Shown: in pieces, positions 5,906-63,903 of the stretch
How the letters are laid out: every line of letters begins with the position of its first letter
Numbering within the stretch: position 1 is the first letter of the stretch
Assembly (NCBI GenBank): GCA_016207665.1
Contig: JACQPG010000055.1
Coordinates: 35,184 to 99,183 of the forward strand
From: Elusimicrobiota bacterium
GTDB lineage: Bacteria > Elusimicrobiota > Elusimicrobia > UBA1565 > UBA9628
Direction: 5' to 3'
DNA length: 64,000 nucleotides
Program-made: the position numbers and the translations under genes
Notes under the pieces: model-generated
The model's database searches: none
Seen by the model: only the letters and a program-made list of their open reading frames with translations
What the model was told of the DNA's origin: nothing

Positions 5906-5958
5906 GAGAGAGCCTCCGGCCCTTCATGGTCCGACAGGCGAATTAAATTATACCACGC

Positions 5959-6876: not shown

Positions 6877-6920
6877 AACATCCTCCCTTGGCTTTATCGC
6901 GCGTATCCTCGATAGAGTAG

Positions 6921-11678: not shown

Positions 11679-11774
11679 GGTTGCCCTCCGGGTTATCGCT
11701 TCGCCAAGAAAAAAAAGAACGTCCCGTCTCTCGCTCACTTGATTATCTAGTTAAATCCGGTCCGAAGATGCGTG

Positions 11775-13366: not shown

Positions 13367-14402
13367 CCTTGACCACATAATCCTTGCCCTCGGACCTGAT
13401 GAGGCCCTTTTCCCGCAGAATCGATTCCCTTTCGTGCTTGTCTATGTCCGAAAAGGAATAGACCTCGGCCCTGATGAACCCCTTCTCGAAATCGCTGTGG
13501 ATGACCCCGGCGGCTTGAGGGGCCCGCGCGCCCGCCGGGATGGTCCAGGCCCTGACCTCGTCCTCTCCGGCCGTGAAGTAACTGCAAAGACCCAACAGGC
13601 GATAAGCCGCCACGATCACCCGCTCAAGCCCGGTGACCTCCAGACCCATCTCCTTCATGAAGACCTGGCGATCCGCCTCTTGAAGCTGCGCGATCTCCGA
13701 CTCGAGCTTCGAGCAAAGGGTGACGGATTCCCCTCCTCGCTCCGCGGCCATGGCCTTGAAATCCTCCAGCATCTTGGGATCCGCCGTCTCATCCGTATTG
13801 CCCACGTAAAGAACGGGCTTGGCGCTGAGCAGGAAGAAATCCCTGATCTGCTTCGGGTCCACTCCCAAGCGACGGGCGGGTATCCCCTTCTCGAGGCCTT
13901 GCTTGACCTTATCGAGCACCGCGAGAGTCTCCCTGGCCGCCTTATCCCCGGATTTGGCCTTGCCCGATACTTTTTCGTACTGTTTCTCGAGGCTGCTCAA
14001 ATCCGCGAGCATCAATTCGGTCTCGATGATCTCCACATCCCGTCGGGGATCGACGGCTCCCAAGGTATGGACCACGTCCGGGTCGCGAAAGAGGCGGACC
14101 ATATGGATGATCGCGTCCACCTCGCGGATATGGGAGAGGAACTTATTGCCGAGACCCTCTCCCGAGGCCGCCCCCTTGACCAGCCCGGCGATATCGACGA
14201 AACGCACGATGGCGGCCGTGGTCTTTTTCGGCTTGAACAGCCCGCTGAGCCTGTCAAGCCTGCTGTCGGGAACTCCGACCACGCCTACGTTGGGCTCGAT
14301 CGTGGTGAAAGGATAGTTCGAGGCGGCGGCATGGCCCGAGGTCAAAGCGTTGAAGATGGTCGATTTTCCGACGTTGGGAAGCCCGACGATGCCGATCTCC
14401 AC
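13332..14402 (-). CDS. ychF: Ribosome-binding ATPase YchF (Obg-family GTPase)
   Basis: G1 motif GLPNVGKST, NYPFTTIEPN, DIAGLV, and the C-terminal TGS domain (...GFIRAEVYSFSDIDKHERE...KDYVVKDGDV). Confidence 0.9.
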   Translation of the reverse strand: MEIGIVGLPNVGKSTIFNALTSGHAAASNYPFTTIEPNVGVVGVPDSRLDRLSGLFKPKKTTAAIVRFVDIAGLVKGAASGEGLGNKFLSHIREVDAIIHMVRLFRDPDVVHTLGAVDPRRDVEIIETELMLADLSSLEKQYEKVSGKAKSGDKAARETLAVLDKVKQGLEKGIPARRLGVDPKQIRDFFLLSAKPVLYVGNTDETADPKMLEDFKAMAAERGGESVTLCSKLESEIAQLQEADRQVFMKEMGLEVTGLERVIVAAYRLLGLCSYFTAGEDEVRAWTIPAGARAPQAAGVIHSDFEKGFIRAEVYSFSDIDKHERESILREKGLIRSEGKDYVVKDGDVCFFKFSS

Positions 14403-14534
14403 GTCTTATTTTATCAAATGGGCCGGGTCGGACTCTCAGAGCCGAAAGTCCCATAATGCCCTGGGCCTTCTAGCGCGAGATGGCCGGACCGAAAGTCTCA
14501 CGCTCGTTTTATTTCATTGAAGTAGAATCGACGC

Positions 14535-17462
14535 ATGAACAGGATCTCCTCGCTGCTGCTTGCCGCCTCTTTATTGTTCTCGTCGATCCAACCCGCTTTC
14601 GCCGCTTCCCGGCAGAGACGCGCGGGCCCGGGCTCGTCCCGCGGACCTGCCGCCGGAGCCAGACGGCCGGCGCGCGTTCAAGGCCCCAGGACCGCCCAGT
14701 CCATCCAGGCTCCTGCCCTGCCGGCTTCCGCCGTGAGCGCCAGCGCCGAAAGACCCGACGATCCCCGACGGCGCCAAGATCCCGGTCCCGACGATGTCGA
14801 TGACGGCGACGGCGGCGGGCGCCGAGACCCGGACATCGACGAGCCCGTCGACCCAGAGCGCGATGATGGATTTCTCCTCAACACATTGGAAAACGTCGAG
14901 ACCTCCTTGGCCAAGCTTGACCGCATATTCGGTGAGAACCGGATCGCGGCTCGCGTCGCCAAGTTGCCCACGATCGATCTCGCTCGCGCGGGCCTGCATG
15001 AGCTGCTGGTCGCCCGGCAGGGAGCCCTTCTGCGCGAGATCGCGCTGGAACGCAGGCTCTCCATACACCATGCCCATGCGATCGAGGACTCGGGCAACGC
15101 TCATACCCATCATCGGAAGGCCCGCGAGACCCAGCAAGACATAACGGCCCTCAAAGCCCACATCTCGAGCATCGAAGCGCGGATCAGGGAGGTCCAAGAG
15201 GCGATACTCCAGCAACAGCCGGCGGATTCGGTCGCCATGCCCCACTCGCTGGAAGACGCCGCCCAGCCGGCTCGGCCTCGCCGATTCAACATCCCCGTCG
15301 AAGACGAGCCGGCGCAGGCGGATTTGACCCCTTGGGAGAAGGCGCTCGCCTTGGGCCGTCGATTGCATCTCAAAGGGTTCAAGATTCCGCCGGTGGAAGC
15401 CGGTCAACCCGTCCGCGTTATCGGATCTTGGACGGAGAAGGAGGTCAATTATAGCGCTGTAGGGATCCAACTGGCTCTCAGCCAGGAAAACGGGCTCGTA
15501 GCCACCCGGAACGGCCAAACCCTCACGCCCGAAGAGCTGATGAGCTGGCTGGAAATCGCGGAGATGGCGGGGCTTAAATCCGCTCCCGCGCCCTTCCAGA
15601 TCCCCGAGAAGGATCGGGCGGCCGCGGAAGCCGGCAAAAAACTGCTCTCGTGGCGCGTTCCGCCCCACATCTTGAACCACTCGCTTCAGGCCGTGATGGG
15701 CGCCAATAAGAGGCGCTTCACGCTTTCGCCCGACGTGGTTTTCTACTTCTTCCGCCAGGGCGTGCCCCTGGCCACGCCCGTCGGACAGATATTGGCTCAA
15801 TTCTTGGCGGCTTTGCGCGAGGAGGGACGCGAAAGAGCCTTGAGCCAGGAGGAGCTTTATTCGTTGGGCGTAGAAATCGAGCAGGAAATCCCCCGCTATA
15901 GGCCCGAGGAAGCCCAAGAAAGCGCCCAGGATCTCTATCGCCGCCTAGCCGACAATACTTTCTACCGGCCTCTGGTGGACTCCCCAGTGGGCATAGACCT
16001 CGGCCGGCCCGGCCTAGATCTGGCCGGCTATCTACGCAAGCAATTCGACGCTCTGCGCGGCAAGCTCAATAACGCCTTGAGCCAGGGCGCGGATTTGGAG
16101 ACCCTGCAAGATCCGGCTCAGGCCCTGCGCTTCGCCTGGACCGCCCTCGCTCCGCTATCCAACGAATTGAGGACCATGCTGCACCGCGATGGATTCTCTT
16201 TCTTAAAGTATGGCTCTGCTCACGAATGGGAGGTCTGGCGCATGCTCCCCCTCGGAGAAGCAGTCTTCTCCCTGGGACTGAACGATATCATCCGCCGCCG
16301 CGCGCAACGGGGCGGCAGGGGCTACGCGGTGCCCGTGATCGCGGACTCGGGCGTCGTCGATACCATACATCCGGACAACTCGAAAAACGTCATCGACCTC
16401 GACCGCGCCGGCCGGGAAATCCCTACCGAGCAACTCCTGGCCAAGGCTCTCGCGGCGCAGGCGGCGAAGAAAAAAGAGGAAGCCAAGAAAGGCGATCTCT
16501 CCCCGGAGGCGGTCGCCCGCCTGGCCGAAGGCACCGAGACCCAGTGGAAAAAGGGCGGGGAAGATATACAGGCCCACGCCCATGCCACCGCCATCGCCAC
16601 GCCTCTAGGTCTGGCGGCGGAGGTCTTGGGCCGGAAGATCCGTTCGGTGGACTTGCCCAACTTCCAGGGCGACTCGGACAAGGTCCCGGAGGGCGATCGG
16701 GAGAACTATTTCTTCGATGAGCTCAAGCGCTCGGTGGAAGCCGCGATACAGCACATTCTCAGCGAGGACGAGCTCTCCATACCGGTGGTGAACTTCAGCT
16801 GGGGCGGCAGTTTCGACAGCCGCATCGGAGAATGGATGAACGAGGTCGCCGCGAAATACGGGGCGATATTCGTCGCGGCTTTCGGCAATTCCGGCCCGGG
16901 ACGCCATCAGGAAACGGTGCCGTCCTACGCGGATGCGGTCGACACCATCGCCGCGACCAACGGGCTCAACGCCGAGGCCAATTTCACCTCGGGCGGCGGT
17001 CTTGGAATACGCACGGCCAGCGGCAAGCGCGCCGAGCGCCCGACCCGAGCCGCCCCTGGCGGTGTTTGGGGAGCCAACAGCTTCCTGCAGCCCGGGGTGC
17101 AGAACGCCGACATGGGAGTGATATTCGCTCCGGAAACCAGCGGGCGCTATATGCATGACCGCGGCACGTCCTTTGCCGCTCCCCTGGACGCCATGGCGTT
17201 GACCTTCATGGCGGATGAGGCGGTGTTCCAGGCCCTTGAGTTCTTCAAAGCCAGCGGCTTGAGCGAGAGGGAGAGCCGGGCGCGGGTCAAGAGCCTGCTC
17301 CCTTCCTTGGCCCGTCAAGTCAGCCTGGCCGCCACCGCGGCGGCCGAGATGATGATCGGAGTGCCGCGCCGTTATCAAGGCAACGGCGCGATCAGGCCTT
17401 CCCGGGCCTTGGAATCGTTGACCCAGCGGGTCCGAGAAATCTTGGAGTCGAGGACATCATGA
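14535..17462 (+). CDS. Secreted 975-aa protein with C-terminal subtilase-like (peptidase S8-like) domain
   Basis: Signal peptide MNRISSLLLAASLLFSSIQPAFA. C-terminal third carries S8-like motifs VIADSGVVDTIHPD (Asp), FVAAFGNSGPG (Asn/oxyanion) and GTSFAAPLDAMAL (Ser); the His-motif region is divergent. N-terminal ~550 aa have no recognisable domain and include a coiled-coil stretch. Confidence 0.65.
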   Translation: MNRISSLLLAASLLFSSIQPAFAASRQRRAGPGSSRGPAAGARRPARVQGPRTAQSIQAPALPASAVSASAERPDDPRRRQDPGPDDVDDGDGGGRRDPDIDEPVDPERDDGFLLNTLENVETSLAKLDRIFGENRIAARVAKLPTIDLARAGLHELLVARQGALLREIALERRLSIHHAHAIEDSGNAHTHHRKARETQQDITALKAHISSIEARIREVQEAILQQQPADSVAMPHSLEDAAQPARPRRFNIPVEDEPAQADLTPWEKALALGRRLHLKGFKIPPVEAGQPVRVIGSWTEKEVNYSAVGIQLALSQENGLVATRNGQTLTPEELMSWLEIAEMAGLKSAPAPFQIPEKDRAAAEAGKKLLSWRVPPHILNHSLQAVMGANKRRFTLSPDVVFYFFRQGVPLATPVGQILAQFLAALREEGRERALSQEELYSLGVEIEQEIPRYRPEEAQESAQDLYRRLADNTFYRPLVDSPVGIDLGRPGLDLAGYLRKQFDALRGKLNNALSQGADLETLQDPAQALRFAWTALAPLSNELRTMLHRDGFSFLKYGSAHEWEVWRMLPLGEAVFSLGLNDIIRRRAQRGGRGYAVPVIADSGVVDTIHPDNSKNVIDLDRAGREIPTEQLLAKALAAQAAKKKEEAKKGDLSPEAVARLAEGTETQWKKGGEDIQAHAHATAIATPLGLAAEVLGRKIRSVDLPNFQGDSDKVPEGDRENYFFDELKRSVEAAIQHILSEDELSIPVVNFSWGGSFDSRIGEWMNEVAAKYGAIFVAAFGNSGPGRHQETVPSYADAVDTIAATNGLNAEANFTSGGGLGIRTASGKRAERPTRAAPGGVWGANSFLQPGVQNADMGVIFAPETSGRYMHDRGTSFAAPLDAMALTFMADEAVFQALEFFKASGLSERESRARVKSLLPSLARQVSLAATAAAEMMIGVPRRYQGNGAIRPSRALESLTQRVREILESRTS

Positions 17463-20104
17463 AACAGTTTCGCCTCTGCCGTATTTTATTTGCGGCCCTC
17501 ATCCTGGGCTCGAGCCTGGCTCCGGCCGGACAAGCCCTGGCCTCCGGCCAGGCGCGGCGCGGCCCGACGCGCATCGCGCGTCTAGGCGGTTTCAGGAATT
17601 GGCTGGCCTCGCCATTGACCCACAAGACGAATGCTCCCGTCGCGACGCGAACAAGTCCCTCACTGGCCCCGATGGCGGCACCCGCGCGAGCATCCGTAAC
17701 CGGACCCGCTCGCGACGCCTCCGCTCTTTCCGATGAGAACGCGCCTTTGCAAGCGGCCGCCACGCCGGACGCTCCCTCAGCCGAAACGGCCGAGCCTTTC
17801 CTCGGCCGCCTGTATCGGCTCGGGGCTTCGCTGTCCCGACTCTGGCGCGTGGACCTTCCCGGAAATCTCAACGAGCTCATGACGCAAGGGGGAAGCGCGC
17901 CGGCCGGCGCCTTCGGATTCCGACCCCAGACCGAGCCGATCGAGATCAACGGGGTGGAACTGCGCCTCGGCCGCATGCCGGCGGCCCCGGATCCGGGGCG
18001 GACAGGGCCGGTGGTGACCCATGATCTAGCTATCCCCGGCTCCAGGACGATCGGGGGCAATCTATCCACGCCGAGAGTGATAGACGCCGATCCGGACGAT
18101 ATGGGATCGGTGGAGCTGGCCATACGGCGGCTCATCGACTCGGACGTGCCGACATTCGGCGTGAGCACCAGCGAATTGGCGCTCGATAACCCGGTCAACA
18201 AAGTCCCCGGCCGCCACGTTCCCGGACTCGCGGATCAGGCCGACGCCATCTATTTAAGATTTTGGCAACACAAGAACGGCATCAGGGTGCAGGACAGCTC
18301 GTTGAGCTTCACCCTCTTCATCGAGGAAAGCAATGGCGCCCGCGCGCTGAAGCTCTACTCCTACCAGGGAAAGACCTTCCCGGACATACAATTGACCGAC
18401 ACGGCTCCCCTTCCCGAGGAGCGGCTCATAGCCGCCGCGCGGGAACATTTGCGCCAAATGGGCGTCCCCGATGACACGCCCCTGGAGCTGCTGCCGCTCG
18501 AAGAGGTCATCCTCTACGTGGAGGATGCCTGGCGCGTTCTCAAGATGTACTCGATCAACGGCTATCCCGTCGTCATCGCCGTCGAGGTCAGCACCGGCAA
18601 GGTATTCTCCTGGGACAACCGCATCGGCGCGGCCGCGCGCATGGAGCTTGCCGCCGGCTGGACCATGGCGGCGCGGCTTGAGGGCAACGACAAGAGAGAC
18701 AAGGACGGGGGACCCCTGCTCAACCAGTTCGCTCTCCCGTTGCTCAAAGTGCGGGTCAAGCTTCCCGACGGACAATTCAAGGACGTCGAGACCGACGCCC
18801 AGGGTCGTTTCACGGTGCCGGAACTGGCCGAAGGCCAGGAAGTCGAGTTCCAAGCCGTGCTCTCGGGCCGATACGTGACGGTCAACAACAAGGCGGGAGA
18901 GCCTATACGCCTTTCGGGCGCGATACGGGGAGGCGAGACCAAGACCCTGGTCTTCAACTCGGAGGGAGCCGATCAAAAGACCGTCGCTCAGGTCAACGCC
19001 TATTACTGGTACAGCTATCTGATCACCTGGTGGAGCCGGGAAGGCGCCGAGGACGCCAAGATCAAGGGCCATGTCCCGGCCAATGTCAATATCCCCAGCT
19101 CCTGCAACGCCTACTATACGCCGGGCAATCCCAGCACTAATTTCTTCCAGGCCAGCAAGGAGTGCGCCAACACCGCCAAGCCGGGCGTCATCCTGCATGA
19201 AGGCGGCCATCACATCATCACCAAGCTGGCCGGGCCCTTCGCCAATCGGGGCTATCACGAGGGCGGGGCCGATTATTTCTCCATGGCCATACTCCGCAGC
19301 CCCATGATCGGCGAGAATTTCCTTCTGGGCCGCAATCCCAGCTGGATACGAGACGGCAGGAACGTCTATCAATACCGTTCCAGCGACGAGGAGCACGATC
19401 AAGGCCAGGCCTTCATGGGCTTTGGCTGGAAGCTCTACGAGAATCTGTTCAAGACCTATGCGGACGAGGATAAAGCCTGGACGATCGCCAACAGCCTGGT
19501 GCTGGCCGTGGTCTACGCCGGAGCCAAGGAGATCCCGGCCATCCTAGCCCAGGTGTTGCTGCGCGACATGGACAAGGAAGGCAAGTTCCGCCATGAAAAT
19601 GAGATTCGCGCCGCGGCCAAGGCTCATGGCATCGACCTGCCCTCGAGCACGACCCGCCTGGAATTGCTGGCCCGCTGGGCCTTCGACCGCTTCCGCCACG
19701 TCCGCATGATCGAGTCCCGGGCCTTGCCCCAAGCCTTGGGCTCCGCGGCCCTGGCCGTCTCCATGAGCGTGCTGCCCCAATCCCAAGGCTTCGCGACGCA
19801 GCCCAAGTTGATCACCCGGCAAGTCGCCTTCGAGGCCGGCGCAAGGACGCGCGAGCAATTGCGCCGCGAGATCGAGAGCGTCTTCGGCTTCATCCATGGA
19901 GAATACCTACTCTACCCCGAGGAATGGAATCGGCTCTATCCGGGCTTCCGCCCCCTCTCCAAGGAGATCCAGGAAGAGGACGGCCGGCTCATCGTGACCA
20001 TCACGGGCCTCAAGCGTTCCGTCGAATACGCGGTCGAGCAGCTGCGGCGGATCAACGTCCGACACCCGCAGGCCGGCGCCCCGCGCGTCATCGCGAGCCT
20101 TTAA
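17459..20104 (+). CDS. Secreted zinc metalloprotease, thermolysin-like (M4-type HExxH...E) with FTP/PepSY-like propeptide region
   Basis: Signal peptide MKQFRLCRILFAALILGSSLAPAGQALA. Zinc site VILHEGGHHIITK (HExxH) with a downstream third-ligand-like HEGGADYFS. PepSY-like segment ...EVILYVEDAWRVLKMYSINGYPVVIAVEVSTGKVFSW. ATGA overlap with the upstream S8-like gene (translational coupling). Confidence 0.7.
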   Translation: MKQFRLCRILFAALILGSSLAPAGQALASGQARRGPTRIARLGGFRNWLASPLTHKTNAPVATRTSPSLAPMAAPARASVTGPARDASALSDENAPLQAAATPDAPSAETAEPFLGRLYRLGASLSRLWRVDLPGNLNELMTQGGSAPAGAFGFRPQTEPIEINGVELRLGRMPAAPDPGRTGPVVTHDLAIPGSRTIGGNLSTPRVIDADPDDMGSVELAIRRLIDSDVPTFGVSTSELALDNPVNKVPGRHVPGLADQADAIYLRFWQHKNGIRVQDSSLSFTLFIEESNGARALKLYSYQGKTFPDIQLTDTAPLPEERLIAAAREHLRQMGVPDDTPLELLPLEEVILYVEDAWRVLKMYSINGYPVVIAVEVSTGKVFSWDNRIGAAARMELAAGWTMAARLEGNDKRDKDGGPLLNQFALPLLKVRVKLPDGQFKDVETDAQGRFTVPELAEGQEVEFQAVLSGRYVTVNNKAGEPIRLSGAIRGGETKTLVFNSEGADQKTVAQVNAYYWYSYLITWWSREGAEDAKIKGHVPANVNIPSSCNAYYTPGNPSTNFFQASKECANTAKPGVILHEGGHHIITKLAGPFANRGYHEGGADYFSMAILRSPMIGENFLLGRNPSWIRDGRNVYQYRSSDEEHDQGQAFMGFGWKLYENLFKTYADEDKAWTIANSLVLAVVYAGAKEIPAILAQVLLRDMDKEGKFRHENEIRAAAKAHGIDLPSSTTRLELLARWAFDRFRHVRMIESRALPQALGSAALAVSMSVLPQSQGFATQPKLITRQVAFEAGARTREQLRREIESVFGFIHGEYLLYPEEWNRLYPGFRPLSKEIQEEDGRLIVTITGLKRSVEYAVEQLRRINVRHPQAGAPRVIASL

Positions 20105-20108
20105 GATA

Positions 20109-20136
20109 TTGACTTCTTTTTGGCGCCTGTTATACT
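20109..20136 (+). promoter_or_regulatory. Candidate sigma70-type promoter (TTGACT-16-TATACT), essentially leaderless, for the 533-aa OMP gene
   Basis: TTGACTtctttttggcgcctgtTATACTgcgggcgctATG. The -10 ends only 9 nt before the ATG at 20146 and there is no SD. Confidence 0.35.
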
Positions 20137-20145
20137 GCGGGCGCT

Positions 20146-21747
20146 ATGAAGAAAACATCCCTGGGAGTCGCGTTTTTATTGACGGCGCAGTCCGCCGGCG
20201 CCATGGAGTGGCAAACTCTGGGCCCGCGGGCCATGGGCATGGGCGGGGCTTATACGGCGATCGCCGAAGGCCCCATCACCCAATATTGGAATCCGGCGGG
20301 ACTGGCTGAGAGCAAGGGGCGCTACGGCTTCGAGATCCCGATCGGCGCCAAGGCCGAGTTCACCGGCGGCGTGCTCAAGAACGCCAACAATCTGGCCGAT
20401 CTGGCCGGCAAATACGATCAGATCACCGCGGCCCAGCAATCGGGCACCGCCGGCGCCGTGGACGCGGACAAGGTCGGCGCTTTCTACAAGGCCTTGGCCA
20501 ATATCTCCGAGATGAACCAGCCCGGCAAGGGTGTGCTCGCCGATATCTCCGGCGGGGGCGGCATAAGGGTGGGACGCTTCGCCTTGTCGGTGCTCAACTA
20601 CACCGAGATCGGCGGCTCGCCTTTCGTCGACACGGTCAACGTCGGACTGACCGGCATTAGCTATGCCGCCGCCAATACCACCCTCTGCGGCGGAGCTGAT
20701 TGCACGATCGCCCCGGCTAATGCCACCAACCAGGCCTCGGCCTCGAGCATAGCCAGCGCGATCGGGGCCTCCGGCTACACGGCCATCAACTCCATCACCG
20801 GCGGGGCTCTGGTCGGCGGAGGCATCGACGACGAGACCGAGCTCGGCAATGCCTTGGTCAACATGGCCACGACCAACGGCATGAGCCCCGAGCAGATAGC
20901 CTCGGCCGCGGCCTCGATCAGCCAGAACGCGGCCGTGGTAAACCCTATACTGCAATCGGCGGCGGCCGGCAACTCCTATCAGAACAACCAGACCAATCTG
21001 ACCTTGCGCGGGGCCTCCTTCACCGAGATGGCCCTGGGCTACGGCCAGGCGCTGCCCTGGGTGCCGGGGCTCAAATTGGGAGGCAATTTCAAGCTGATCT
21101 CGGGCAATATCGGCTATCAGCGCTATCAAGTGCTCGACAAAGCCTCGGGCTCCTCGGGCGGGGACGCGCTCAAGGACTTCAAGGCCAACACCGAGACCAC
21201 GATCAAACCGGCCATAGATCTGGGAGCTCTCTGGCATCTCAAGTCCATGCTGCCCGTCCTGCCTTTCAATCCTCGCGTCGGCCTGGTCGCCCGCAATATC
21301 AACAACCCCAAATTCAAGCAGCCGGCCAGCGCTCGAGCCAACGGCGATACCGCGGATTATCCGCTCAATCCTCAATACCGGGCGGGCGTGGCCCTCAGCC
21401 CCTTCGCCTTCTGGCACGTGGCCATGGACGGCGATCTGAGCAAGAACAACACCGCGGTGCCCGGCTTTCAGTCCCAGAAGGTGGGGTTGGGCACGGAGAT
21501 CAACGTGTTCAACCGCTCCTGGATCAACATCCCTCTGCGCGCGGGCCTTGCCAAGAACATGGCGGACTCGGGCTCGAAGCTGGCCTATTCCGGCGGCTTC
21601 GGCCTAAACTTCCTCCATTTCGTCTTCGACATCGGAGGCTCGATCAGCTCGGACAGGACCGAGGTCAAGACCGGCTCGGGCTCGAGCGGCAGCGAGAAGG
21701 TCCCCTCAAACTTCTCGGTCGCGGCCCAATTGGGCTTCGTCTTCTGA
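20146..21747 (+). CDS. Large (533 aa) PorV/FadL-like outer-membrane beta-barrel protein, paralog 3 (TraF-like family resemblance)
   Basis: Signal peptide MKKTSLGVAFLLTAQSAGA. Same N-terminal signature as the two smaller paralogs (GPRAMGMGGAYTAIAEGPITQYWNPAGL). Gly/Ser/Asn/Ala-rich extracellular-loop-type insertions. C-terminal ...SVAAQLGFVF terminal-aromatic OMP signature. Confidence 0.65.
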   Translation: MKKTSLGVAFLLTAQSAGAMEWQTLGPRAMGMGGAYTAIAEGPITQYWNPAGLAESKGRYGFEIPIGAKAEFTGGVLKNANNLADLAGKYDQITAAQQSGTAGAVDADKVGAFYKALANISEMNQPGKGVLADISGGGGIRVGRFALSVLNYTEIGGSPFVDTVNVGLTGISYAAANTTLCGGADCTIAPANATNQASASSIASAIGASGYTAINSITGGALVGGGIDDETELGNALVNMATTNGMSPEQIASAAASISQNAAVVNPILQSAAAGNSYQNNQTNLTLRGASFTEMALGYGQALPWVPGLKLGGNFKLISGNIGYQRYQVLDKASGSSGGDALKDFKANTETTIKPAIDLGALWHLKSMLPVLPFNPRVGLVARNINNPKFKQPASARANGDTADYPLNPQYRAGVALSPFAFWHVAMDGDLSKNNTAVPGFQSQKVGLGTEINVFNRSWINIPLRAGLAKNMADSGSKLAYSGGFGLNFLHFVFDIGGSISSDRTEVKTGSGSSGSEKVPSNFSVAAQLGFVF

Positions 21748-56969: not shown

Positions 56970-57572
56970 TCAAGACTCAACGCCCCATAATTCTTTAAGC
57001 CGCTTGTCCCGGCCGCAGCCCCGCCGATAGAACTTATAGCGGATCGGGTTTCTCTTGTAATAATCCTGGTGATATCCCTCCGCGGGATAGAACCGAGAGG
57101 CTGGAGTGATCTCCACCACGATGCGGCCGGGCGCTTTCAAGCGCCCTTGGGCTTGCTGTACCGAAGCCTCCGCCGCCTTCTTCTGCGCCTCATTGCGATA
57201 GAAGATGCCCGGCCTGTACTGGCGGCCCTTATCGCAGAATTGCCTGTCGTTGACCGTCGGATCCACATTGATCCAGAACACTTCCAGAAGCTTCTCGTAC
57301 GAGACCCGCGATGGATCGAAGCGTATCTCCACCGCCTCGGCATGTCCCGTGCCCCCAGCGGATACTTCTTCATAACTGGGATTGTCTTTCTCCCCTCCCG
57401 TATATCCCGCGGTGACCGATATTACCCCCTGGATTTTCTCGAAAGGGGGCTCCATGCACCAAAAACAGCCGCCCGCGAAAATCGCGCTGTCAAGCCCCTG
57501 CTCAACTCCCGCGGAAGCGGCATTGACCGCTAGAAACAGCAAAAGAAATATCGAACCAAGAGCCTTTCTCAT
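56970..57572 (-). CDS. msrA: Peptide methionine sulfoxide reductase A (signal-peptide form)
   Basis: Catalytic AIFAGGCFWCMEPPFE. Start set at internal ATG 57572 to avoid overlap with tRNA-Thr. Confidence 0.9.
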   Translation of the reverse strand: MRKALGSIFLLLFLAVNAASAGVEQGLDSAIFAGGCFWCMEPPFEKIQGVISVTAGYTGGEKDNPSYEEVSAGGTGHAEAVEIRFDPSRVSYEKLLEVFWINVDPTVNDRQFCDKGRQYRPGIFYRNEAQKKAAEASVQQAQGRLKAPGRIVVEITPASRFYPAEGYHQDYYKRNPIRYKFYRRGCGRDKRLKELWGVES

Positions 57573-57586
57573 AATTCCAATGAAAA

Positions 57587-57658
57587 AGCCCACGGCCAGG
57601 ATTGAACTGGCGACCTACCGCTTACAAGGCGGTTGCTCTACCACTGAGCTACGTGGGC
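57587..57658 (-). tRNA. tRNA-Thr, anticodon TGT
   Basis: GCCCACG TA GCTC AGTGGTA GAGC A ACCGC CTTGTAA GCGGT AGGTC GCCAG TTCAATC CTGGC CGTGGGC T. Textbook cloverleaf; CCA not encoded. Confidence 0.85.
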
Positions 57659-57969
57659 GATAGCTTTATTTTACAACAATAATTCTTAGGCCGACGAAAT
57701 CACAGTGATCGGAATTCTGATCGGTTATTGCCCAGTTTAGCTGGAAATGATGAAATTGGAAAATTCATTGCCCCCTGAAATGCAAAATAGTAATCGACTA
57801 TAATCCAAATCGAGATAAAAGAGAATATCAATGCCATGCTTGTGGATTAGGCTTTGATTACCGAAGAGAACTCCACTTTAGAAGCGGAGCTATCAGCAAA
57901 TATTTGATTTCGGGGGAGACTATCCAGGATATTTAACTTAAGATTAATTTTTGCCATTGAGAGGCGCCC

Positions 57970-58443
57970 GTGGCGCCGGTTAAAGACTTCCTCGCCGCGA
58001 TCGATGCCGGCTGGAGGCCGATAGGAGACGAACCAATTACTCTCCAGATAGTCGGCTCGACAGCGCTCATGCTTCAGGCCGATTATACCCGCGGAACCAA
58101 GGATAGCGACGTGCTTGAATCAAGCGGCGGCCCACTTCCCCTAAAAGAGCGATTACTGGCTCTAGCCGGGCGGGAAACAGACTTGCACAAACGGTTCCGG
58201 CTCTATATAGACGTGATAGACCGAGCGATTCTCTTTCTGCCGCAGCAGCCGGAATTCCGTCCGCTTCAGGGACTCGCTCTCAAGAATTTCAAGATCGAGG
58301 TCTTGGCAGTGAACGACGTCGTCCTGAGCAAGCTTAAACGATATAACCGGGATGACACAAATGACATCCGCACCATGGCCGCCAAGGGCCTCATTGACCA
58401 CAATTTGCTGATTGAGCCCCTGTCGCGACGGTTGTCGTTTTAG
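57970..58443 (+). CDS. Orphan minimal nucleotidyltransferase (MNT)-fold protein, probably horizontally acquired
   Basis: NTase signature GSTALMLQADYTRGTKDSDVL (GS-x-D.D). A/T-rich third codon positions (ATA, TTA, AAA, GAT), unlike neighbouring genes. Preceded by a ~310-bp AT-rich spacer and tRNA-Thr. Confidence 0.45.
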   Translation: MAPVKDFLAAIDAGWRPIGDEPITLQIVGSTALMLQADYTRGTKDSDVLESSGGPLPLKERLLALAGRETDLHKRFRLYIDVIDRAILFLPQQPEFRPLQGLALKNFKIEVLAVNDVVLSKLKRYNRDDTNDIRTMAAKGLIDHNLLIEPLSRRLSF

Positions 58444-59365
58444 AAGCGGTAGGAGAGCGAGACTCGATGGGCCTGGCCGATCGAGCCGAAGGGAAGGAAG
58501 CCGTAATCGACGGAAAGCTTGGATAAAGCCAGTCCCACTCCGAAGGACACGCCCGTGAATCCGTCCACGTCGCCGATGGTGCGGGAGTTGAAACCGACAC
58601 GGCCGGCCAAGGCCAGCTCGTCGCGAATGGGAAGGAGGTATTCGCTGCCCACGGCCACGAACGGGTCGTTGTCCCGCGGCAGGCCCAGGTCCAGGCTGGC
58701 GATCCAGCGCTCGATCAAACGATAGCTGCCGCCCAGCTTGATCAAGAGCGGCAGATCCTCCTTCTCCTGGTCGAATTTGATCTGACCGCCCAGGTTGGAG
58801 ACGGCGAGGCCCACGCGCAGCCTTTCACCAAGATAACCGGGGGAAAGCGCGCCCAAGTCGACCGCGCCGGTCTGCGCGGAGTCCAAAATAGTGGAGCGGA
58901 TGAACTTCGCTCCCAGGCCGAAAGAGAAATCGCGCCAGGAACGGGCGTAGCCCCAGGTCAGCGCCAGATCATGCGGGGTGAAGTCGCCCACATCCGTTCC
59001 CGTGGCGTCCGTCTCCATGATCTTGCCGGCGGAGAAATACTGGAAGCTCGCGCCGAACACCCCTTTGTCGCCCAGATTATGGGCGTAGGCGCCATAATCG
59101 AAGAAGCTCGAGTCCAGATAGGCTGCGTGCATGAAGGTCGCGGAGCGCCGCTCGACGCGGGTCAAGGCGGCGGGATTCCAATAGAGCGCGCTCGCGTCGT
59201 CGGCGACCGCGGTATAGGCCTCGCCCATGGACACGGCCCGGGCGCCGACGCCCAGCTTCAAGAATGAGGCCGCCGTGCTCCCTTTTGCTCGGCCGCGCTG
59301 AAACTGCGGCTCCAGGCCGCCGGGGCCGCAACAAGCAAGGCCGCCAAGAGCGCTGACGATCTCAT
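58440..59365 (-). pseudogene. PorV/FadL-like outer-membrane barrel, paralog 2, interrupted by a 1-nt frameshift just after the signal peptide
   Basis: Signal peptide MRSSALLAALLVAAPAAWS reads in one frame (ATG 59365). The conserved mature part (...KGSTAASFLKLGVGARAVSMGEAYTAVADDASALYWNPAAL ... AHRVSLSYRF) reads in the -1 frame. They join at the homopolymer run around 59280-59287 (cccttttg on the plus strand). Confidence 0.6.
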
Positions 59366-59371
59366 CGCTGT

Positions 59372-59496
59372 ATAGCCACCTTGATGGTTTCCTTGTCGCC
59401 GGCGCCCTGGACCAGGACGTAATAGACGCCGCTGGCCGCCTTCTGGCCCATTTGATTCTTGCCGTCCCAACCGGCCATGTGCCCGAGCCCGACAAC
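59372..59496 (-). pseudogene. Remnant of a type-A T9SS C-terminal sorting domain (last ~40 codons of a lost cargo gene)
   Basis: Minus-strand frame reads (stop) VVGLGHMAGWDGKNQMGQKAASGVYYVLVQGAGDKETIKVAIQR (stop). The WDG...G...ASGVYY..L...G...K.I...I tail matches the Por secretion tail. It ends 6 nt before the PorV-like signal-peptide ATG. No CTD-like continuation upstream in any frame. Confidence 0.6.
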
Positions 59497-59723
59497 TCAG
59501 ATCAGGGAAGGTTCCGAACCGATATCTGGGACTTTGTCCCGAATGGAGGACCAGAACCTCAGTTCGGAGCATATCATTGGTGAAACCAGGCAGGCAGGAT
59601 ACCACTTTTTTAAGGAAAACATCGCCATCGATTCACCCTCTTGTGCGGGGATCCGAAGGACGGCCAGATCGAAGCCCTCGCCGCTCCCTTGACAGCGGCG
59701 CCAACGCGCTTTAAACTTGGGCC

Positions 59724-60317
59724 ATGAACAAAAAGGCTTTCGCGGCGTTGGCGTCTTTGTCGTTGTTGTCGGCCGTATCCGCCTACTCCAATGGCGGCCA
59801 TGTGGGCGAGGCGGACAAGATCCAGGCGCAAGTGAGCTTCCTCAACCCCACGGGCCAGACCACCACGGACGGCTCAGGCATCACCTATCGCGTCCCGGCT
59901 TGGGGCTGGCAGTCGCATGAAGCCAAGGTCTATCCTTCGAGCTATTGGGGCACTTTCCCCATGTATTTCACCGGGGAGACCATGAACTTCAGCGTGACCC
60001 TCGCCAACACCGCCTCCAACGGCAACAAGCCCTTCAAGATCAGGGTCCGGGCGCTCAACAACGTGCTCGAGACCAGCGGAGCGGCGGGCATGGCGATCGG
60101 CCCGGCCCAAGAATGGATCGTCGATTCGCTCAGGCCCGGGGAATCGCGGACGGTGAACGGCTCGGTCTATATCGCGCCCCATCCGTCGATGCCGTCGGGC
60201 CTGGATCTGACGCGGGTGCAGATACTGCACCTCAACGAGGGCAATCAGGACGCAGGCTTGATCAAGGAAGTGATCGCCGTCTGGTGCCCGCCGAGCGTGA
60301 GGCCGCCCGGCCGCTGA
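59724..60317 (+). CDS. Small secreted hypothetical protein
   Basis: Signal peptide MNKKAFAALASLSLLSAVSAYS; beta-rich composition; no known motif. Confidence 0.5.
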   Translation: MNKKAFAALASLSLLSAVSAYSNGGHVGEADKIQAQVSFLNPTGQTTTDGSGITYRVPAWGWQSHEAKVYPSSYWGTFPMYFTGETMNFSVTLANTASNGNKPFKIRVRALNNVLETSGAAGMAIGPAQEWIVDSLRPGESRTVNGSVYIAPHPSMPSGLDLTRVQILHLNEGNQDAGLIKEVIAVWCPPSVRPPGR

Positions 60318-60737
60318 GCCTGCGGCTATATCCTTTTTCCAGAGGGCCCGCTCGCCTTTCTTGATCTCATCCCAATTGGCGAGCACCTCGTCGGCGTCGC
60401 GATAGCGCCGATTCCGGCCGAACACGTGTGGGTGGCGCCGCTTGAGCTTGAAATACTGCGAGCGCGCGACATCGTAGATCGTGAAACGGCCCTTCTCGGA
60501 CTCGATCTGGGCATGGAGAAGCACCTGTAGCAGCAGATCTCCCAGCTCATCCTCGATCTCCTCCCAGCGGCCTCGCTTGAGCGCCTTTTCGACTTCGGCG
60601 GTCTCCTCCCGCAAATAGCTCAAGAGGCTTCGGTGGGTCTGTTTCCTATCCCACGGGCAGCCTCGCGGCGATCTCAAGCGCGCCACCAAAGCGATGAGCC
60701 GGCCGAGGCTCTTGGAGCTTGCCGATGATCGGGGCAT
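59874..60737 (-). CDS. mazG: MazG-like nucleoside triphosphate pyrophosphohydrolase; 3' end uncertain
   Basis: Core LGRLIALVARLRSPRGCPWDRKQTHRSLLSYLREETAEVEKAL...EIEDELGDLLLQVLLHAQIESEKGRFTIYDVARSQYFKLKRRHPHVFG matches the MazG EExxE/D motifs. The frame then runs ~150 aa further without a stop, across the opposite-strand secreted-protein gene. Confidence 0.55.
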   Translation of the reverse strand: MPRSSASSKSLGRLIALVARLRSPRGCPWDRKQTHRSLLSYLREETAEVEKALKRGRWEEIEDELGDLLLQVLLHAQIESEKGRFTIYDVARSQYFKLKRRHPHVFGRNRRYRDADEVLANWDEIKKGERALWKKDIAAGSAAGRPHARRAPDGDHFLDQACVLIALVEVQYLHPRQIQARRHRRMGRDIDRAVHRPRFPGPERIDDPFLGRADRHARRSAGLEHVVERPDPDLEGLVAVGGGVGEGHAEVHGLPGEIHGESAPIARRIDLGFMRLPAPSRDAIGDA

Positions 60738-60783
60738 GGGCGATGATTGTAGCTCTTGACACGACCCCTCCTCCAGGGTATAT

Positions 60784-61728
60784 ATGCGTGAATTCATAGG
60801 AGGACCCATGGGATTTGTCGTTCTAGCCCTGTTCTTGACCGCCGCGATCGTGATGATGTCCCGGTCTCAATGGCAGCTGGGAAACCGCGTGGATTTGGGC
60901 GCCTTGATCTCGCTCGCTCTGCGCTACGGCGTGGGCCTGATCCTGCTGGCCATGCTGATTTCGGTGACCGCCAACTCCCTGGTCGTGATAGCCGCCGGGC
61001 ATCGCGGCATCGTGTTCAACAGGCTCAGCGGAATACGGCAAAAGTCCTTGGGAGAGGGCTTCAATTTCGTGATGCCGCTCATCGAGCAGGTCTATCAGAT
61101 GGAAGTCCGCGTGCAGAAGGACTCCTACGACGCCGAGGCCGCCTCCAAGGACTTGCAGATGGTCCATGCCAAGGTGGCTCTAAATTATCATCCGGATCCC
61201 GAAGCGGTGCCCCGAGTATTCCAGGAGGTGGGGACGCAGTACTCGGAAAGAGTCATCCAACCCGCCATCCAGGAAGCGGTCAAGGCCACCACGGCCCGCT
61301 TCACGGCCGAGGAGCTGGTGACCAAGCGCGAGGAAGTCAAGCGTCTCATCCGGGAGTTGGTCGACAAGCAGATCTCGCCCTTCAACATACGGGTCAATGA
61401 GCTCTATATCACCGACTTCGACTTCTCGCGCCAATACACCGAGGCCATCGAGGCTAAGCAGATCGCCGAGCAGCAGGCCCTCAAGGCCAAGCGCGACCTG
61501 GACAGGATCAGGATCGAGGCCGAGCAGAAGGTGGCCACGGCGCGCGCCGAGGCGGACTCGTTGAGGATGCAGAAAGAGGCGATCACGCCGCAACTAATCC
61601 AGCTCCGGCAAGTCGAGACTCAAAAGCTCGCCATAGAGAAGTGGAACGGCCAAATGCCCAGCGTGATCCTGGGCAGCGGCGCCACCCCCTTGCTCGACCT
61701 TAGCTCGCTGTCGCCGCGCTTCAAATGA
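60784..61728 (+). CDS. SPFH/band-7 (prohibitin/HflC-like) membrane protein
   Basis: N-terminal TM anchor, SPFH core and long coiled-coil C-terminus (AEQQALKAKRDLDRIRIEAEQKVATARAEADSL). Confidence 0.8.
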   Translation: MREFIGGPMGFVVLALFLTAAIVMMSRSQWQLGNRVDLGALISLALRYGVGLILLAMLISVTANSLVVIAAGHRGIVFNRLSGIRQKSLGEGFNFVMPLIEQVYQMEVRVQKDSYDAEAASKDLQMVHAKVALNYHPDPEAVPRVFQEVGTQYSERVIQPAIQEAVKATTARFTAEELVTKREEVKRLIRELVDKQISPFNIRVNELYITDFDFSRQYTEAIEAKQIAEQQALKAKRDLDRIRIEAEQKVATARAEADSLRMQKEAITPQLIQLRQVETQKLAIEKWNGQMPSVILGSGATPLLDLSSLSPRFK

Positions 61729-62418: not shown

Positions 62419-63903
62419 CTAGGGCTCGATGGGGTCGCGCCGCGCGGCCTTGGGGGGCTCGCGAAGGTCAGAGGACCGGTCGCTCACGATCCCGTTTTTC
62501 TGGAGTATCTCTCGGTTGGCCTTCGTGGCCGCCTCTGCATCCAGGATGATACGCGCGGAGAACTCCGTGACCGGGTCGCCCGAGATGACGTGGAATCGGC
62601 CTTGGGGCTTTTGAAATGCCTCGATGACGTCCGCCATCCTGGTGATCGGCGCTCCGTTGATGGAGTCCACGAGCATGCTGCGATAATCATGGTAACCTTC
62701 GTTGACCTCATGAGGGAGCACGAAGGCCATGACCACCGGCTCTTGCTTGGAGGTCTTCCGCTCGTATTCCTGCATATAGCGGAAGCTGGTAGGCTGGTTC
62801 CTGGGATCCCAGAGATTGACGAAATTGCGCGAGAGTGGAGTGAAAACCAGCCCTCCGTAAATGAAATAGCTGGGCTTCTTGTCGTAGAAAGGCCCGTCGA
62901 CCAGGTCGATATAGGGGCGCAGGCTAATGGCCTGCTTCAAGGGCTTGCCTCCCCTCAAAACGTCCAAGGTGATGGACTCGCCGGTCTGACGTATCGCCAC
63001 CAGATGCGTGTAGTCGACCCGGTTCTCCACGTCGAGCTGATAGGTCCCGTCGCTATAGATGGCGTGGCCGTCGACCGCCATGATCACGTCTCCGGGCTGG
63101 AGAGCCCCCCACGCGGAGGATGCGGGAAACACCTTGTTGACCAGGACCCCGCCCTTGTCCTTAGGCACGCCGTAAAAGTCCCGGAGGGCGGGGCTTTCCA
63201 GCTTTTGGGTGGATATGCCAATGCTGGGGATGCGGTCATAGGAGCCGTCGGCCACGTCGCTGAAGAAGCGGCGGATGACGGCACTGGGGACCATGTAGCC
63301 GATATTGTCAGTCCCGGAGGCAGACTGGAAAGAGATGCCGACGATCCTGCCGTCCTTGACCACCGGTCCGCCGCTGTTGCCCGGATTGATGGCCGCGTCG
63401 GTCTGTATGGTGAGCAAATAATAGCCGGAATGACTATATCTAGTTACCTCGATGCGGGATACGGTCCCCTCGGTCACCGAGAGCTCGTCCCCTCCGGTGG
63501 GAAAACCGTAGGCCGCCACGCGGTCGCGCTGCTTGGGCAGACCCCCCAGGGGCAGCGGCTTGACGTTGCGGTGAAATTCCGGGTCGTCCACGCGAAGGAT
63601 GGCGAGCTCGCAGTCATGCGCCACGAACTCCACCCTGGCACGATACTTGCGCGCCTCTCCCGCCTTTCTGACCTGGAGATAGCTTTGGTCGCTGACCACG
63701 TGGGCATTGGTCAGTATGCGCCCCCCCTCGACCAGCACCCCGGAGCCCGTCATGCTCTCTTGATTGAGCATGGACCAAGGCTGATAATAATTGGGCCTCT
63801 GCACCACCGTGAATATCTTGACCACAGAGTGCCTCAGATCATCGGGAGCGGCTGAGGCCGGCAAACACGCCAACCCGAGCGCCAGAGCGGCTTTCACGAT
63901 CAT
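62419..63903 (-). CDS. Deg/HtrA-family trypsin-like serine protease with PDZ domain(s)
   Basis: Signal peptide, catalytic motifs TNAHVV, DCELAILRV, GNSGGPVV, C-terminal PDZ-like regions. 494 aa. Confidence 0.85.
   Translation of the reverse strand: MIVKAALALGLACLPASAAPDDLRHSVVKIFTVVQRPNYYQPWSMLNQESMTGSGVLVEGGRILTNAHVVSDQSYLQVRKAGEARKYRARVEFVAHDCELAILRVDDPEFHRNVKPLPLGGLPKQRDRVAAYGFPTGGDELSVTEGTVSRIEVTRYSHSGYYLLTIQTDAAINPGNSGGPVVKDGRIVGISFQSASGTDNIGYMVPSAVIRRFFSDVADGSYDRIPSIGISTQKLESPALRDFYGVPKDKGGVLVNKVFPASSAWGALQPGDVIMAVDGHAIYSDGTYQLDVENRVDYTHLVAIRQTGESITLDVLRGGKPLKQAISLRPYIDLVDGPFYDKKPSYFIYGGLVFTPLSRNFVNLWDPRNQPTSFRYMQEYERKTSKQEPVVMAFVLPHEVNEGYHDYRSMLVDSINGAPITRMADVIEAFQKPQGRFHVISGDPVTEFSARIILDAEAATKANREILQKNGIVSDRSSDLREPPKAARRDPIEP

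Follow-up and report, generated by a model that had tools for sequence, protein, structure and literature searches.

In an Elusimicrobiota genome, one member of a conserved and undescribed family of PorZ-CTD/PorQ-like gene pairs has probably been inactivated recently. The window, the whole stretch of DNA analysed, comprises 64,000 nt of Elusimicrobiota bacterium (GCA_016207665.1, contig JACQPG010000055.1, positions 35,184-99,183, forward strand). On its minus strand a cargo remnant (59478..59365) is followed by a PorV/PorQ-family barrel gene (58440..59365). The favoured reading, with a probability of roughly 0.7, is a two-gene cargo-barrel operon that was recently inactivated by a cargo deletion and a barrel frameshift, the pair being most likely non-functional. 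The original prediction of a second cargo/dedicated-barrel locus, with the cargo cut to its last codons (38 by the present analysis) and the barrel one base short, is borne out. The features of the locus are as follows.

59724..60317, plus strand: 197-aa gene, divergent from the remnant; its protein is conserved in Elusimicrobia
59689..59717, plus strand: sigma-70-like promoter match, the sole one in the 227-nt spacer; faces the 197-aa gene, away from the remnant
59479..59499, minus strand: truncation junction, read from the sequence; six non-homologous codons (VVGLGH), then an in-frame TGA (59499..59497) upstream; CTD homology ends here
59365..59478, minus strand: cargo-gene remnant, last 38 codons MAGWDGKNQMGQKAASGVYYVLVQGAGDKETIKVAIQR (MAGWDG…KVAIQR*), T9SS type-A-like / FlgD_ig-like CTD by family profile, tblastn and Pfam/NCBIfam
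59376..59382, minus strand: Shine-Dalgarno-like AAGGTGG in the K-V codons of the remnant, 10 nt ahead of the barrel ATG; conserved across the family
59362..59365, minus strand: ATGA, the cargo TGA overlapping the barrel ATG by 4 nt (cgATGAga), a signature of translational coupling
59279..59365, minus strand: 5' part of the barrel gene, read in the frame of its ATG: signal peptide MRSSALLAALLVAAPAAWS plus RSFSAAEQKG; matches the N-terminal ends of 28 intact homologues as far as …QKG
59279..59287, minus strand: frameshift site CAA AAG GGA, with A4 at 59286..59283 and G3 at 59282..59280; one base short relative to all homologues
58440..59285, minus strand: PorV/PorQ-family barrel body, 281 codons (KGSTAASFLKLGVGARA…SLSYRF), ending in TAA (58442..58440); -1 frame relative to the start codon

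The cargo remnant and the barrel gene

The open frame VVGLGHMAGWDGKNQMGQKAASGVYYVLVQGAGDKETIKVAIQR* occupies 59496..59362 on the minus strand, its CTD-homologous portion being the 38 codons 59478..59365, which open with an ATG and end at the stop TGA 59364..59362. By sequence comparison, this portion is a fragment of a type-A-like T9SS CTD, and its similarity to CTDs is far beyond chance. A profile of 28 related cargo tails, built from the CTDs of cargo genes upstream of the closest homologues of the barrel, matches the remnant with 51.8 bits (E 3e-18, positions 53-90 of 90), well above chance as the proposed check against CTD models required. In tblastn, the cargoes of the two closest relatives find it with E values of 2e-14 and 4e-12, and the identity to relatives' cargo C-termini is 37-65% across 35-38 aa. 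Among public models, the remnant matches the NCBIfam PorZ C-terminus (E 5e-6, positions 717-755 of 757), Pfam FlgD_ig (PF13860; E 2e-4, 21.6 bits against a cut-off of 27, profile positions 53-76 of 79), TIGR04183 (14 bits against a cut-off of 23, positions 50-72 of 72) and, weakly, the CHU_C type-B model (E 0.018). Neither TIGR04183 nor PF13860 is matched end to end; the alignment takes in just the final third to 40% of the domain. Of eight intact CTDs tested from this subfamily, seven reach 27-34 bits against TIGR04183 over positions 1-72 of 72, which upholds the assignment of the remnant to the terminal part of a type-A CTD. These intact CTDs match the PorZ C-terminus best, with 34-63 bits, the PorZ equivalog cut-off being 260.

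The remnant and the barrel gene had been described as separated by 6 nt. This was wrong, as the cargo stop and the barrel start share the 4-nt ATGA at 59365..59362, and the first pair in the window (cargo 6921..11738, barrel 5959..6924) has an identical overlap at 6924..6921. The arrangement …AAGGTGGC(N)9 CGATGA… is kept at the cargo/barrel junction family-wide, and of the 59 related loci with a CTD upstream, 28 have the CGATGA junction itself. The AAGGTGG motif is probably the ribosome-binding site of the barrel.

The barrel matches the PorV_fam model NF033709 over its full length (191.1 bits, cut-off 90, model positions 1-326 of 326) and Pfam PorV PF19572 with 50-51 bits (cut-off 27). The best equivalog-level match is to PorQ (NF033711), with 129.5 bits below a cut-off of 220, followed by PorV (NF033710), with 91.4 bits below a cut-off of 250; Pfam Toluene_X matches weakly. 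The identity to 38 homologues is 52-70%. The AlphaFold2 model of the barrel body (pLDDT 89.7, pTM 0.86) predicts a FadL/TodX-like beta-barrel, with FadL and TodX as the top Foldseek matches in the PDB (E 5e-10, TM 0.6-0.67, identity about 11-17%) and an N-terminal segment with short helices where the hatch of FadL sits. The signal peptide and the body lie in different frames and do not form a single ORF; given the full-length family match, the gene is a family member by descent, yet disrupted. The GenBank entry for the barrel is a 273-aa ‘PorV/PorQ family protein’, which starts at an internal Met, lacks the signal peptide and leaves the 38-codon fragment outside. An exact-product look-up found neither this 273-aa product nor that of the SPFH neighbour on record.

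The intact operon would have encoded a large secreted cargo ending in a ~90-residue T9SS type-A-like CTD and a dedicated PorV/PorQ-family outer-membrane barrel of the FadL fold, with the ribosome-binding site and start codon of the latter placed inside the last cargo codons (…AAGGTGG…CGATGA). As the PorZ-PorQ and PorU-PorV pairs of Bacteroidota suggest by analogy, the barrel may bind its partner's CTD, keeping the cargo at the cell surface or presenting it there. A deletion or rearrangement would have taken away all of the cargo gene but the final 38 codons, its start and promoter apparently included, and the barrel would then have lost one base in an A4G3/G4 run, parting the signal peptide from the body.

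The two lesions and the assemblies

The start-codon frame of the barrel gene (ATG 59365..59363) reads MRSSALL…AAEQKGARRPHS* and stops at 59260..59258, seven codons past the shift site. The body frame, from AAA 59285..59283 to TAA 58442..58440, is one base off from it. In the alignment with 28 homologues the first frame is followed through …FSAAEQKG and the second from KGSTAASFLK…, and this swap of homology at QKG/KGS locates the frameshift within the A4G3 run 59286..59280. The signal peptide and mature part are thus in different frames joined at a homopolymer, as predicted. A single added base makes the barrel match the 28 intact homologues end to end. The gene is a single ORF in all 28 homologues of this alignment and in all 38 of a second set, none of which is shifted here. 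Five suspicious overlapping ORF pairs elsewhere in the window (UvrD/GatC, RmuC/AHSA1, MlaC/PPIase, GatA and TrmA/YchF) were all found to be distinct intact genes, which indicates that the window is not generally riddled with frameshifts.

On the cargo side, both the stop directly upstream of the remnant (the in-frame TGA) and the lack of a CTD-like continuation in any frame are confirmed. The best CTD signal in the 245 nt upstream (59479..59723, all frames) is -2.7 bits, a value equalled or exceeded by 436 of 500 shuffles. The tblastn alignments run past the stop to ~59568, although the extension SELRFWSSIRDKVPDIGSE of ~20 codons requires dropping eight codons, the stop among them, and 19 of 400 shuffles equal it when any frame and any gap are allowed (p ~0.05). 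An in-frame vestige up to ~59568 is therefore marginal and unproven. No repeats or mobile-element ends were found at the truncation junction. A search of 57500..59900 for Rfam families returned tRNA-Thr only. That the cargo body might have moved to another part of the window was considered and rejected, the matches being the two CTDs only. The minus-strand gene 62419..63903 encodes a DegP-like protease and not a displaced cargo body.

The two lesions belong to the DNA that was sampled and did not arise as errors of assembly. L093, a Logan contig built separately from run SRR12113383 and publicly available, matches 58528..59640 with 100% identity and spans both the A4G3 site and the truncation junction; if it shares one read set with the MAG, the two are independent assemblies but not independent libraries. 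Its reproduction of the truncation and the frameshift makes a homopolymer miscall or a misassembly unlikely, and the sequencing error that had been offered as an explanation of the barrel frameshift is not supported. A further contig, L092 (run SRR12113385), is 100% identical to 57622..58645. That a miscall in the barrel, a chimeric join imitating the cargo truncation, or both, would account for the locus is hardly credible, even though the Logan contigs are short and of low coverage and a deletion-type discrepancy lies ~1 kb away. There, at ~60323, the window and the contig L004 differ by a 1-bp indel (GG vs GGG), and in the window the MazG ORF extends ~150 codons antisense into a conserved gene, so at least one of the two assemblies is not error-free. 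The Nextera adapter in which L004 ends points to Illumina libraries, in which A4G3 miscalls are rare. A repeat-mediated chimera within the CTD would leave CTD-like sequence on both sides, but none is found upstream; no repeats tie the 227-nt spacer to the rest of the window, and the other genes tested are intact.

Alternatively, the lesioned allele might be one strain variant coexisting with an intact allele, an instance of surface-protein variation rather than a fixed pseudogene. The Logan contigs break at 59640/59645, beside the junction, the passenger domains of the cargo are hypervariable among relatives, where the CTDs alone match, and the synteny around the locus varies among them. This is quite unlikely, as low coverage explains the contig breaks equally well and a collection of 5.8 billion proteins contains no intact barrel or fragment 90-100% identical to this one. 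A protein search likewise turned up no fragment of the barrel's N-terminal part with 100% identity in another assembly, the best match being 70% identical. The scan of GTDB representatives with the barrel gave only four loci of at most 55% identity, the genome and species of the window not being among these representatives.

The gene-pair family and the age of the decay

The intact operon is common in Elusimicrobiota and some other phyla. Among 77 related loci, each with at least 300 nt upstream of the barrel, a CTD cargo lies directly upstream in 59, nearly always as a full-length match, and 18 barrels have none. A shortened CTD was found upstream in none of the 77, two partial matches arising where the contig or the scanned stretch ends. 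The locus L089, considered as a second remnant, was rejected, as its CTD merely runs off the end of the contig. In the closest relatives, a cargo of 790-1474 aa immediately precedes the barrel and shares the 4-nt overlap with it, exactly at the place of the remnant, and the full cargo gene that was to be looked for in related genomes is thus found. The nearest barrel, 70% identical, belongs to another genome and a different neighbourhood, and homologues of the neighbouring 197-aa gene occupy unrelated neighbourhoods in the synteny comparison. A literature search found no paper on pairs of CTD cargo and PorQ-like barrels. The wide occurrence in Elusimicrobiota of T9SS-type CTD cargo coupled to private PorQ-like barrels makes the context of the locus more interesting than its lesion.

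The two barrels of the window are only 35% identical to each other, against the 70% that links the second barrel to that of another genome, and the profile of the remnant's own subfamily scores the remnant at 55 bits and the tail of the first cargo at 26.5 bits. The two pairs are thus old paralogues of a multi-copy family and not a recent duplication; the earlier suggestion that the locus arose by duplication of the pair at 5959..11678 is not supported.

The decay proposed along with this duplication stands as far as the two lesions themselves are concerned, while further erosion is absent from both genes. The remnant scores level with the intact family (55.0 vs 54.8 ± 4.7 bits), and the barrel has no deviations at 82 columns of at least 90% conservation, where homologues average 3.7. 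With the remnant and barrel otherwise undamaged, the lesions are evolutionarily very recent. This is ordinary recent gene decay, consisting of a 5'-truncated fragment and a homopolymer frameshift.

The full absence of further decay would also suit a gene that is still used. The shift site is a canonical -1 slippery heptamer of the form X_XXY_YYZ in the zero frame (A_AAG_GGA, 59285..59279), its -1 frame is exactly the barrel frame and the zero frame ends shortly beyond it, so some full-length barrel could still be made. The barrel might then be expressed and functional through a -1 ribosomal shift, programmed or of low spontaneous frequency, or through RNA polymerase slippage in A4G3. The remnant would be kept for the ribosome-binding site, the ATGA start and possibly as a leader ORF, in keeping with the conserved Shine-Dalgarno-like motif and overlap at the junction and with the lack of relaxed constraint in either gene. 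The orphan barrel would serve other CTD proteins, and the 18 loci without a CTD cargo suggest that orphan barrels may be viable. Such continued function is nevertheless unlikely. Any 1-nt homopolymer deletion yields a slippery-looking site, and AAAGGGA is not rare, occurring 12 times in the window. The other marks of programmed -1 frameshifting, structure and conservation, are missing, as no stimulatory RNA structure was found downstream of the site (fold z = -0.68, with 46 of 200 shuffles folding as well) and none of the 38 homologues is shifted there. No promoter-like site was found on the minus strand of the 227-nt spacer upstream of the remnant and barrel, and keeping the ribosome-binding site needs ~25 nt, not 114. 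It is still less probable that the frameshift acts as a switch, in which -1 slippage at A_AAG_GGA or indel phase variation in A4G3/G4 would set the level of the orphan PorQ-like barrel, with the remnant as a leader ORF feeding ribosomes to the ATGA-coupled start. If it did, the tail of a deleted cargo gene would have been reused for regulation.

As an inactivated operon, the locus is a routine pseudogene call whose main use is in annotation. It is also a natural experiment in which an adjacent cargo and barrel are damaged together and otherwise pristine, which is consistent with a barrel dedicated to one cargo but does not prove it.

Comparison with known systems

The lesions are of the same types as in ordinary bacterial pseudogenes and are otherwise unremarkable, except that here two of them affect adjacent, functionally linked genes without other decay.

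Handling of a CTD by a cognate barrel has precedents in PorZ-PorQ, PorU-PorV and type-B-CTD/PorP-SprF (PMC10202324). The PorZ-PorQ pair of the Bacteroidota T9SS is similar in that the barrel described here matches PorQ best, while the intact CTDs and the remnant match the C-terminus of PorZ best, although no score reaches the equivalog cut-off, 220 for PorQ and 260 for PorZ. Unlike PorZ-PorQ, the two genes described here are translationally coupled in an operon, their cargo is hypervariable and several paralogous copies exist; the present copy is broken. The host, an Elusimicrobia MAG, does not belong to the FCB superphylum, from which T9SS has been described; a literature search likewise assigned T9SS to this superphylum and yielded nothing on Elusimicrobia. 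Screening of 32 window ORFs revealed none of the T9SS core machinery (SprA/Sov translocon, PorK/L/M/N or GldK/L/M/N, PorU sortase), 16 of the ORFs being screened with Pfam only and so limited to Pfam-modelled components.

Genes of type B CTD cargo cluster with that of their own PorV-like outer-membrane barrel, which is needed for that cargo (PMC10202324). SprB-SprF of Flavobacterium johnsoniae, a type B CTD protein and a PorP/SprF barrel, resembles the present locus in having the cargo gene beside its own dedicated barrel. The CTD described here is, however, type A / FlgD_ig-like, and the barrel belongs to PorV/PorQ and not to PorP/SprF.

The predicted barrel fold is most similar to the 14-stranded channels FadL and TodX. 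The sequence identity to them is nevertheless low, and the family signature and gene context suggest a role in CTD handling rather than in the uptake of hydrophobic substrates.

The broken pair and its identity

The broken pair is a recently inactivated member of a conserved and undescribed operon family, in which a cargo ending in a C-terminal sorting domain (CTD) is paired with a PorQ-like barrel. Its parts, as read from the sequence, are:

59499..59497, minus strand: in-frame TGA directly upstream of the remnant frame
59496..59362, minus strand: remnant frame, VVGLGHMAGWDGKNQMGQKAASGVYYVLVQGAGDKETIKVAIQR, then stop
59364..59362, minus strand: TGA stop of the remnant frame, overlapping the barrel ATG (59365..59363)
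59365..59363 (ATG) to 59260..59258 (stop), minus strand: start-codon frame of the barrel, MRSSALLAALLVAAPAAWSRSFSAAEQKGARRPHS, then stop
59285..59283 (AAA) to 58442..58440 (TAA), minus strand: barrel body in the -1 frame, 281 codons, KGSTAASFLKLGVGARAV…YWNPAAL…SLSYRF

This is the locus as described in the original prediction, save for the gene spacing: instead of a 6-nt gap between the remnant stop and the barrel ATG, the genes overlap by 4 nt (ATGA), as they do at the intact pair (6921..6924).

The barrel body matches the PorV/PorQ family model NF033709 of NCBIfam end to end (positions 1–326 of 326) with 191 bits against a cut-off of 90, and Pfam PorV with 50 bits. Within this family PorQ is nearer (129 bits) than PorV (91 bits), with both scores under the equivalog cut-offs, and the best PDB matches of the AlphaFold2 model of the body (pLDDT 89.7, pTM 0.86) are FadL/TodX barrels. 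The GenBank entry, MBI4375836.1, is a 273-aa “PorV/PorQ family protein” from an Elusimicrobia MAG and starts at an internal Met. Homology to 28 barrel proteins follows the start-codon frame to …FSAAEQKG and then the -1 frame from KGST, which places the shift within the run 59286..59280 and agrees with the predicted change of frame between signal peptide and barrel body at a homopolymer. Every homologue compared is a single ORF, and with one base added to the A4G3 run the barrel becomes a 308-aa protein that aligns with the 28 homologues from Met1 to the last residue at 54–66% identity.

Taken alone, the remnant has partial matches at the C-terminus of FlgD_ig (E 2e-4), of the PorZ CTD (E 5e-6) and of TIGR04183 (E 0.03). 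At the level of sequence comparison, its identity as a CTD end is settled by the cargo genes of relatives. In contigs carrying the closest barrel homologues, among them L001 (barrel 70% identical), L002 (62%) and L008–L010, the barrel is immediately preceded by a large gene, which in most cases overlaps it by the same 4 nt. These upstream genes encode 790–1474 aa and end in …RLRIYTLxGELVKDLxADxSGMAxWDGTNQSGxxVASGVYFVxxQGxGxxKTFKVAVQR and a stop. In tblastn, the relatives' cargo proteins find only two places in the window, the CTD of the intact pair's cargo (~6924..7124) and the remnant (59365..59478, 37–65% identity), and a profile of 28 relatives' cargo tails matches the remnant at positions 53–90 of 90 with 51.8 bits (E 3e-18), in line with its proposed nature as the terminal part of a T9SS CTD. 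Intact CTDs of the remnant's subfamily are most like the PorZ CTD, and seven of the eight tested passed TIGR04183 end to end with 27–34 bits.

The claim that no CTD-like continuation exists in any frame holds for the 245 nt that precede the remnant, where the best score was -2.7 bits, reached or exceeded by 436 of 500 shuffles. Some tblastn alignments run in frame past the TGA to SELRFWSSIRDKVPDIGSE (~59568), and dropping 8 codons from this extension adds 6 bits; with any frame and any gap size allowed, 19 of 400 shuffles match the extension score. A further in-frame CTD vestige up to ~59568 is unproven. No displaced cargo body was found elsewhere in the 64-kb window, and no repeat or Rfam element at the junction of the remnant with the upstream DNA.

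Reality and age of the lesions

A look-up of the exact 38-aa remnant product returned the 1113-bp Logan contig SRR12113383_5822913, which is 100% identical to window 58528..59640, a stretch that holds the TGA upstream of the remnant, its junction, the ATGA overlap and GAGCAAAAGGGAGCACGG. The same bases in an independent assembly speak against the homopolymer sequencing error first offered as an alternative, and settle most of the question of whether truncation and frameshift are real. A second Logan contig (run SRR12113385) matches 57622..58645 at 100% identity; the libraries are apparently Illumina, because one Logan contig ends in a Nextera adapter. A caveat is that a third, L004, has GGG where the window has GG (~60323) and is otherwise identical (972 of 973 positions), so that there is an assembly error in one of them or a strain difference; on the side of the MAG, the GG is probably an error of 1 bp or a strain-level indel. 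The ORF at this site is:

59874..60809, minus strand: MazG ORF, extending in the window version ~150 codons antisense through a conserved 197-aa gene

In the L004 version it stops at ~60262. Another five ORF overlaps that raised suspicion in the window are separate intact genes.

The shift site could be a programmed switch, as CAA-AAG-GGA holds A_AAG_GGA, a formal -1 slippery heptamer leading into the barrel frame, but this is weak evidence for recoding because any homopolymer deletion inevitably creates such a pattern. Within the window this heptamer is found 12 times, the downstream RNA structure is nothing unusual (z = -0.68) and no barrel homologue is shifted at the A4G3 position. Genuine programming is very improbable; that the barrel is still functional is somewhat less so, though unlikely.

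The broken pair is better read as recently inactivated. Over the final 38 positions of the profile the remnant reaches 55.0 bits where intact family members have 54.8 ± 4.7, and the barrel deviates at none of 82 columns at least 90% conserved in the 28 homologues, which themselves average 3.7 deviations. As the pair is thus undecayed beyond the truncation and the missing base, both lesions are recent. From “duplication and decay” the decay stands, whereas a recent duplication of the 5959..11738 pair does not: the two barrels share 35% identity and the tail of the first cargo reaches only 26.5 bits on the remnant-subfamily profile, so that the locus is not a recent copy.

Surroundings and related loci

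The spacer upstream of the remnant holds a single promoter-like site, TTGACA-17-TAAACT, which serves the divergent 197-aa gene (site and gene 59689..60317, plus strand). It ends just 6 nt before the ATG of that gene, which would imply a leaderless or near-leaderless mRNA. The product, a conserved Elusimicrobia protein, has a signal-peptide-like N-terminus as judged by eye, no family in Pfam or NCBIfam, and 27 homologues, Elusimicrobia wherever the source is named, not counting an identical copy in run SRR12113383. In the related contig L005 (202..6828; YchF 82% identical), its homologue adjoins a TrmA-YchF-S8 peptidase block, which in the window (12164..17462) lies 46 kb from the 197-aa gene (59724..60317), next to the first cargo/barrel pair and tRNA-Arg. 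The lineages are separated by a rearrangement, to which the truncation of the cargo may be related.

On the other side of the barrel, in 57659..58443, a low-GC stretch (~42% against ~61% in the flanks) adjoins tRNA-Thr (57587..57658); no flanking repeats were found, and Logan contig L092 confirms the sequence. The gene there is:

57970..58443, plus strand: DUF6036 nucleotidyltransferase gene, after the low-GC stretch, convergent with the barrel, the stops overlapping by 4 nt

A 533-aa ORF (20146..21747, plus strand) has a weak N-terminal PorV/PorQ-family match (40.7 bits, under the cut-off) and follows two large ORFs of 975 and 881 aa, the former of which resembles an S8 peptidase, judging from its similarity to L005; a third locus of the cargo/barrel type, a divergent one, may lie at 14535..21747 (plus strand). 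In the related contig L049 (~5600..6000), an ORF of 128 codons that precedes a PorV-like barrel apparently consists of just a hydrophobic, signal-peptide-like N-terminus (by eye) and a full-length CTD, and would be a “cargo” without passenger domain.

The gene-pair family and its proposed role

The lesion itself is ordinary; of more interest is the gene-pair family. Of the barrel-homologue loci, 77 offer 300 nt or more of sequence upstream of the barrel. A CTD immediately precedes the PorV/PorQ-like barrel in 59 of them, and 28 of these show the ATGA overlap. The cargo/barrel junction …AAGGTGGCGGTGCAGCGATGA… is conserved across the family and …AAGGTGGC…CAGCGATGA… is kept in ~28 loci (window 6921..6951 and 59362..59392, and relatives within L001–L069); the last codons of the cargo (KVAVQR and stop) therefore hold an SD-like motif and the overlapping barrel start. 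This arrangement argues for cargo and barrel being co-translated in fixed order as one-to-one partners. Literature searches found no description of a T9SS, or of CTD-cargo/barrel pairs, in Elusimicrobia. By analogy, each barrel would bind the CTD of its own cargo and anchor the cargo at the surface, the models for a barrel holding the CTD of its own cargo being PorZ-PorQ, PorU-PorV and type-B-CTD/PorP-SprF (PMC10202324).
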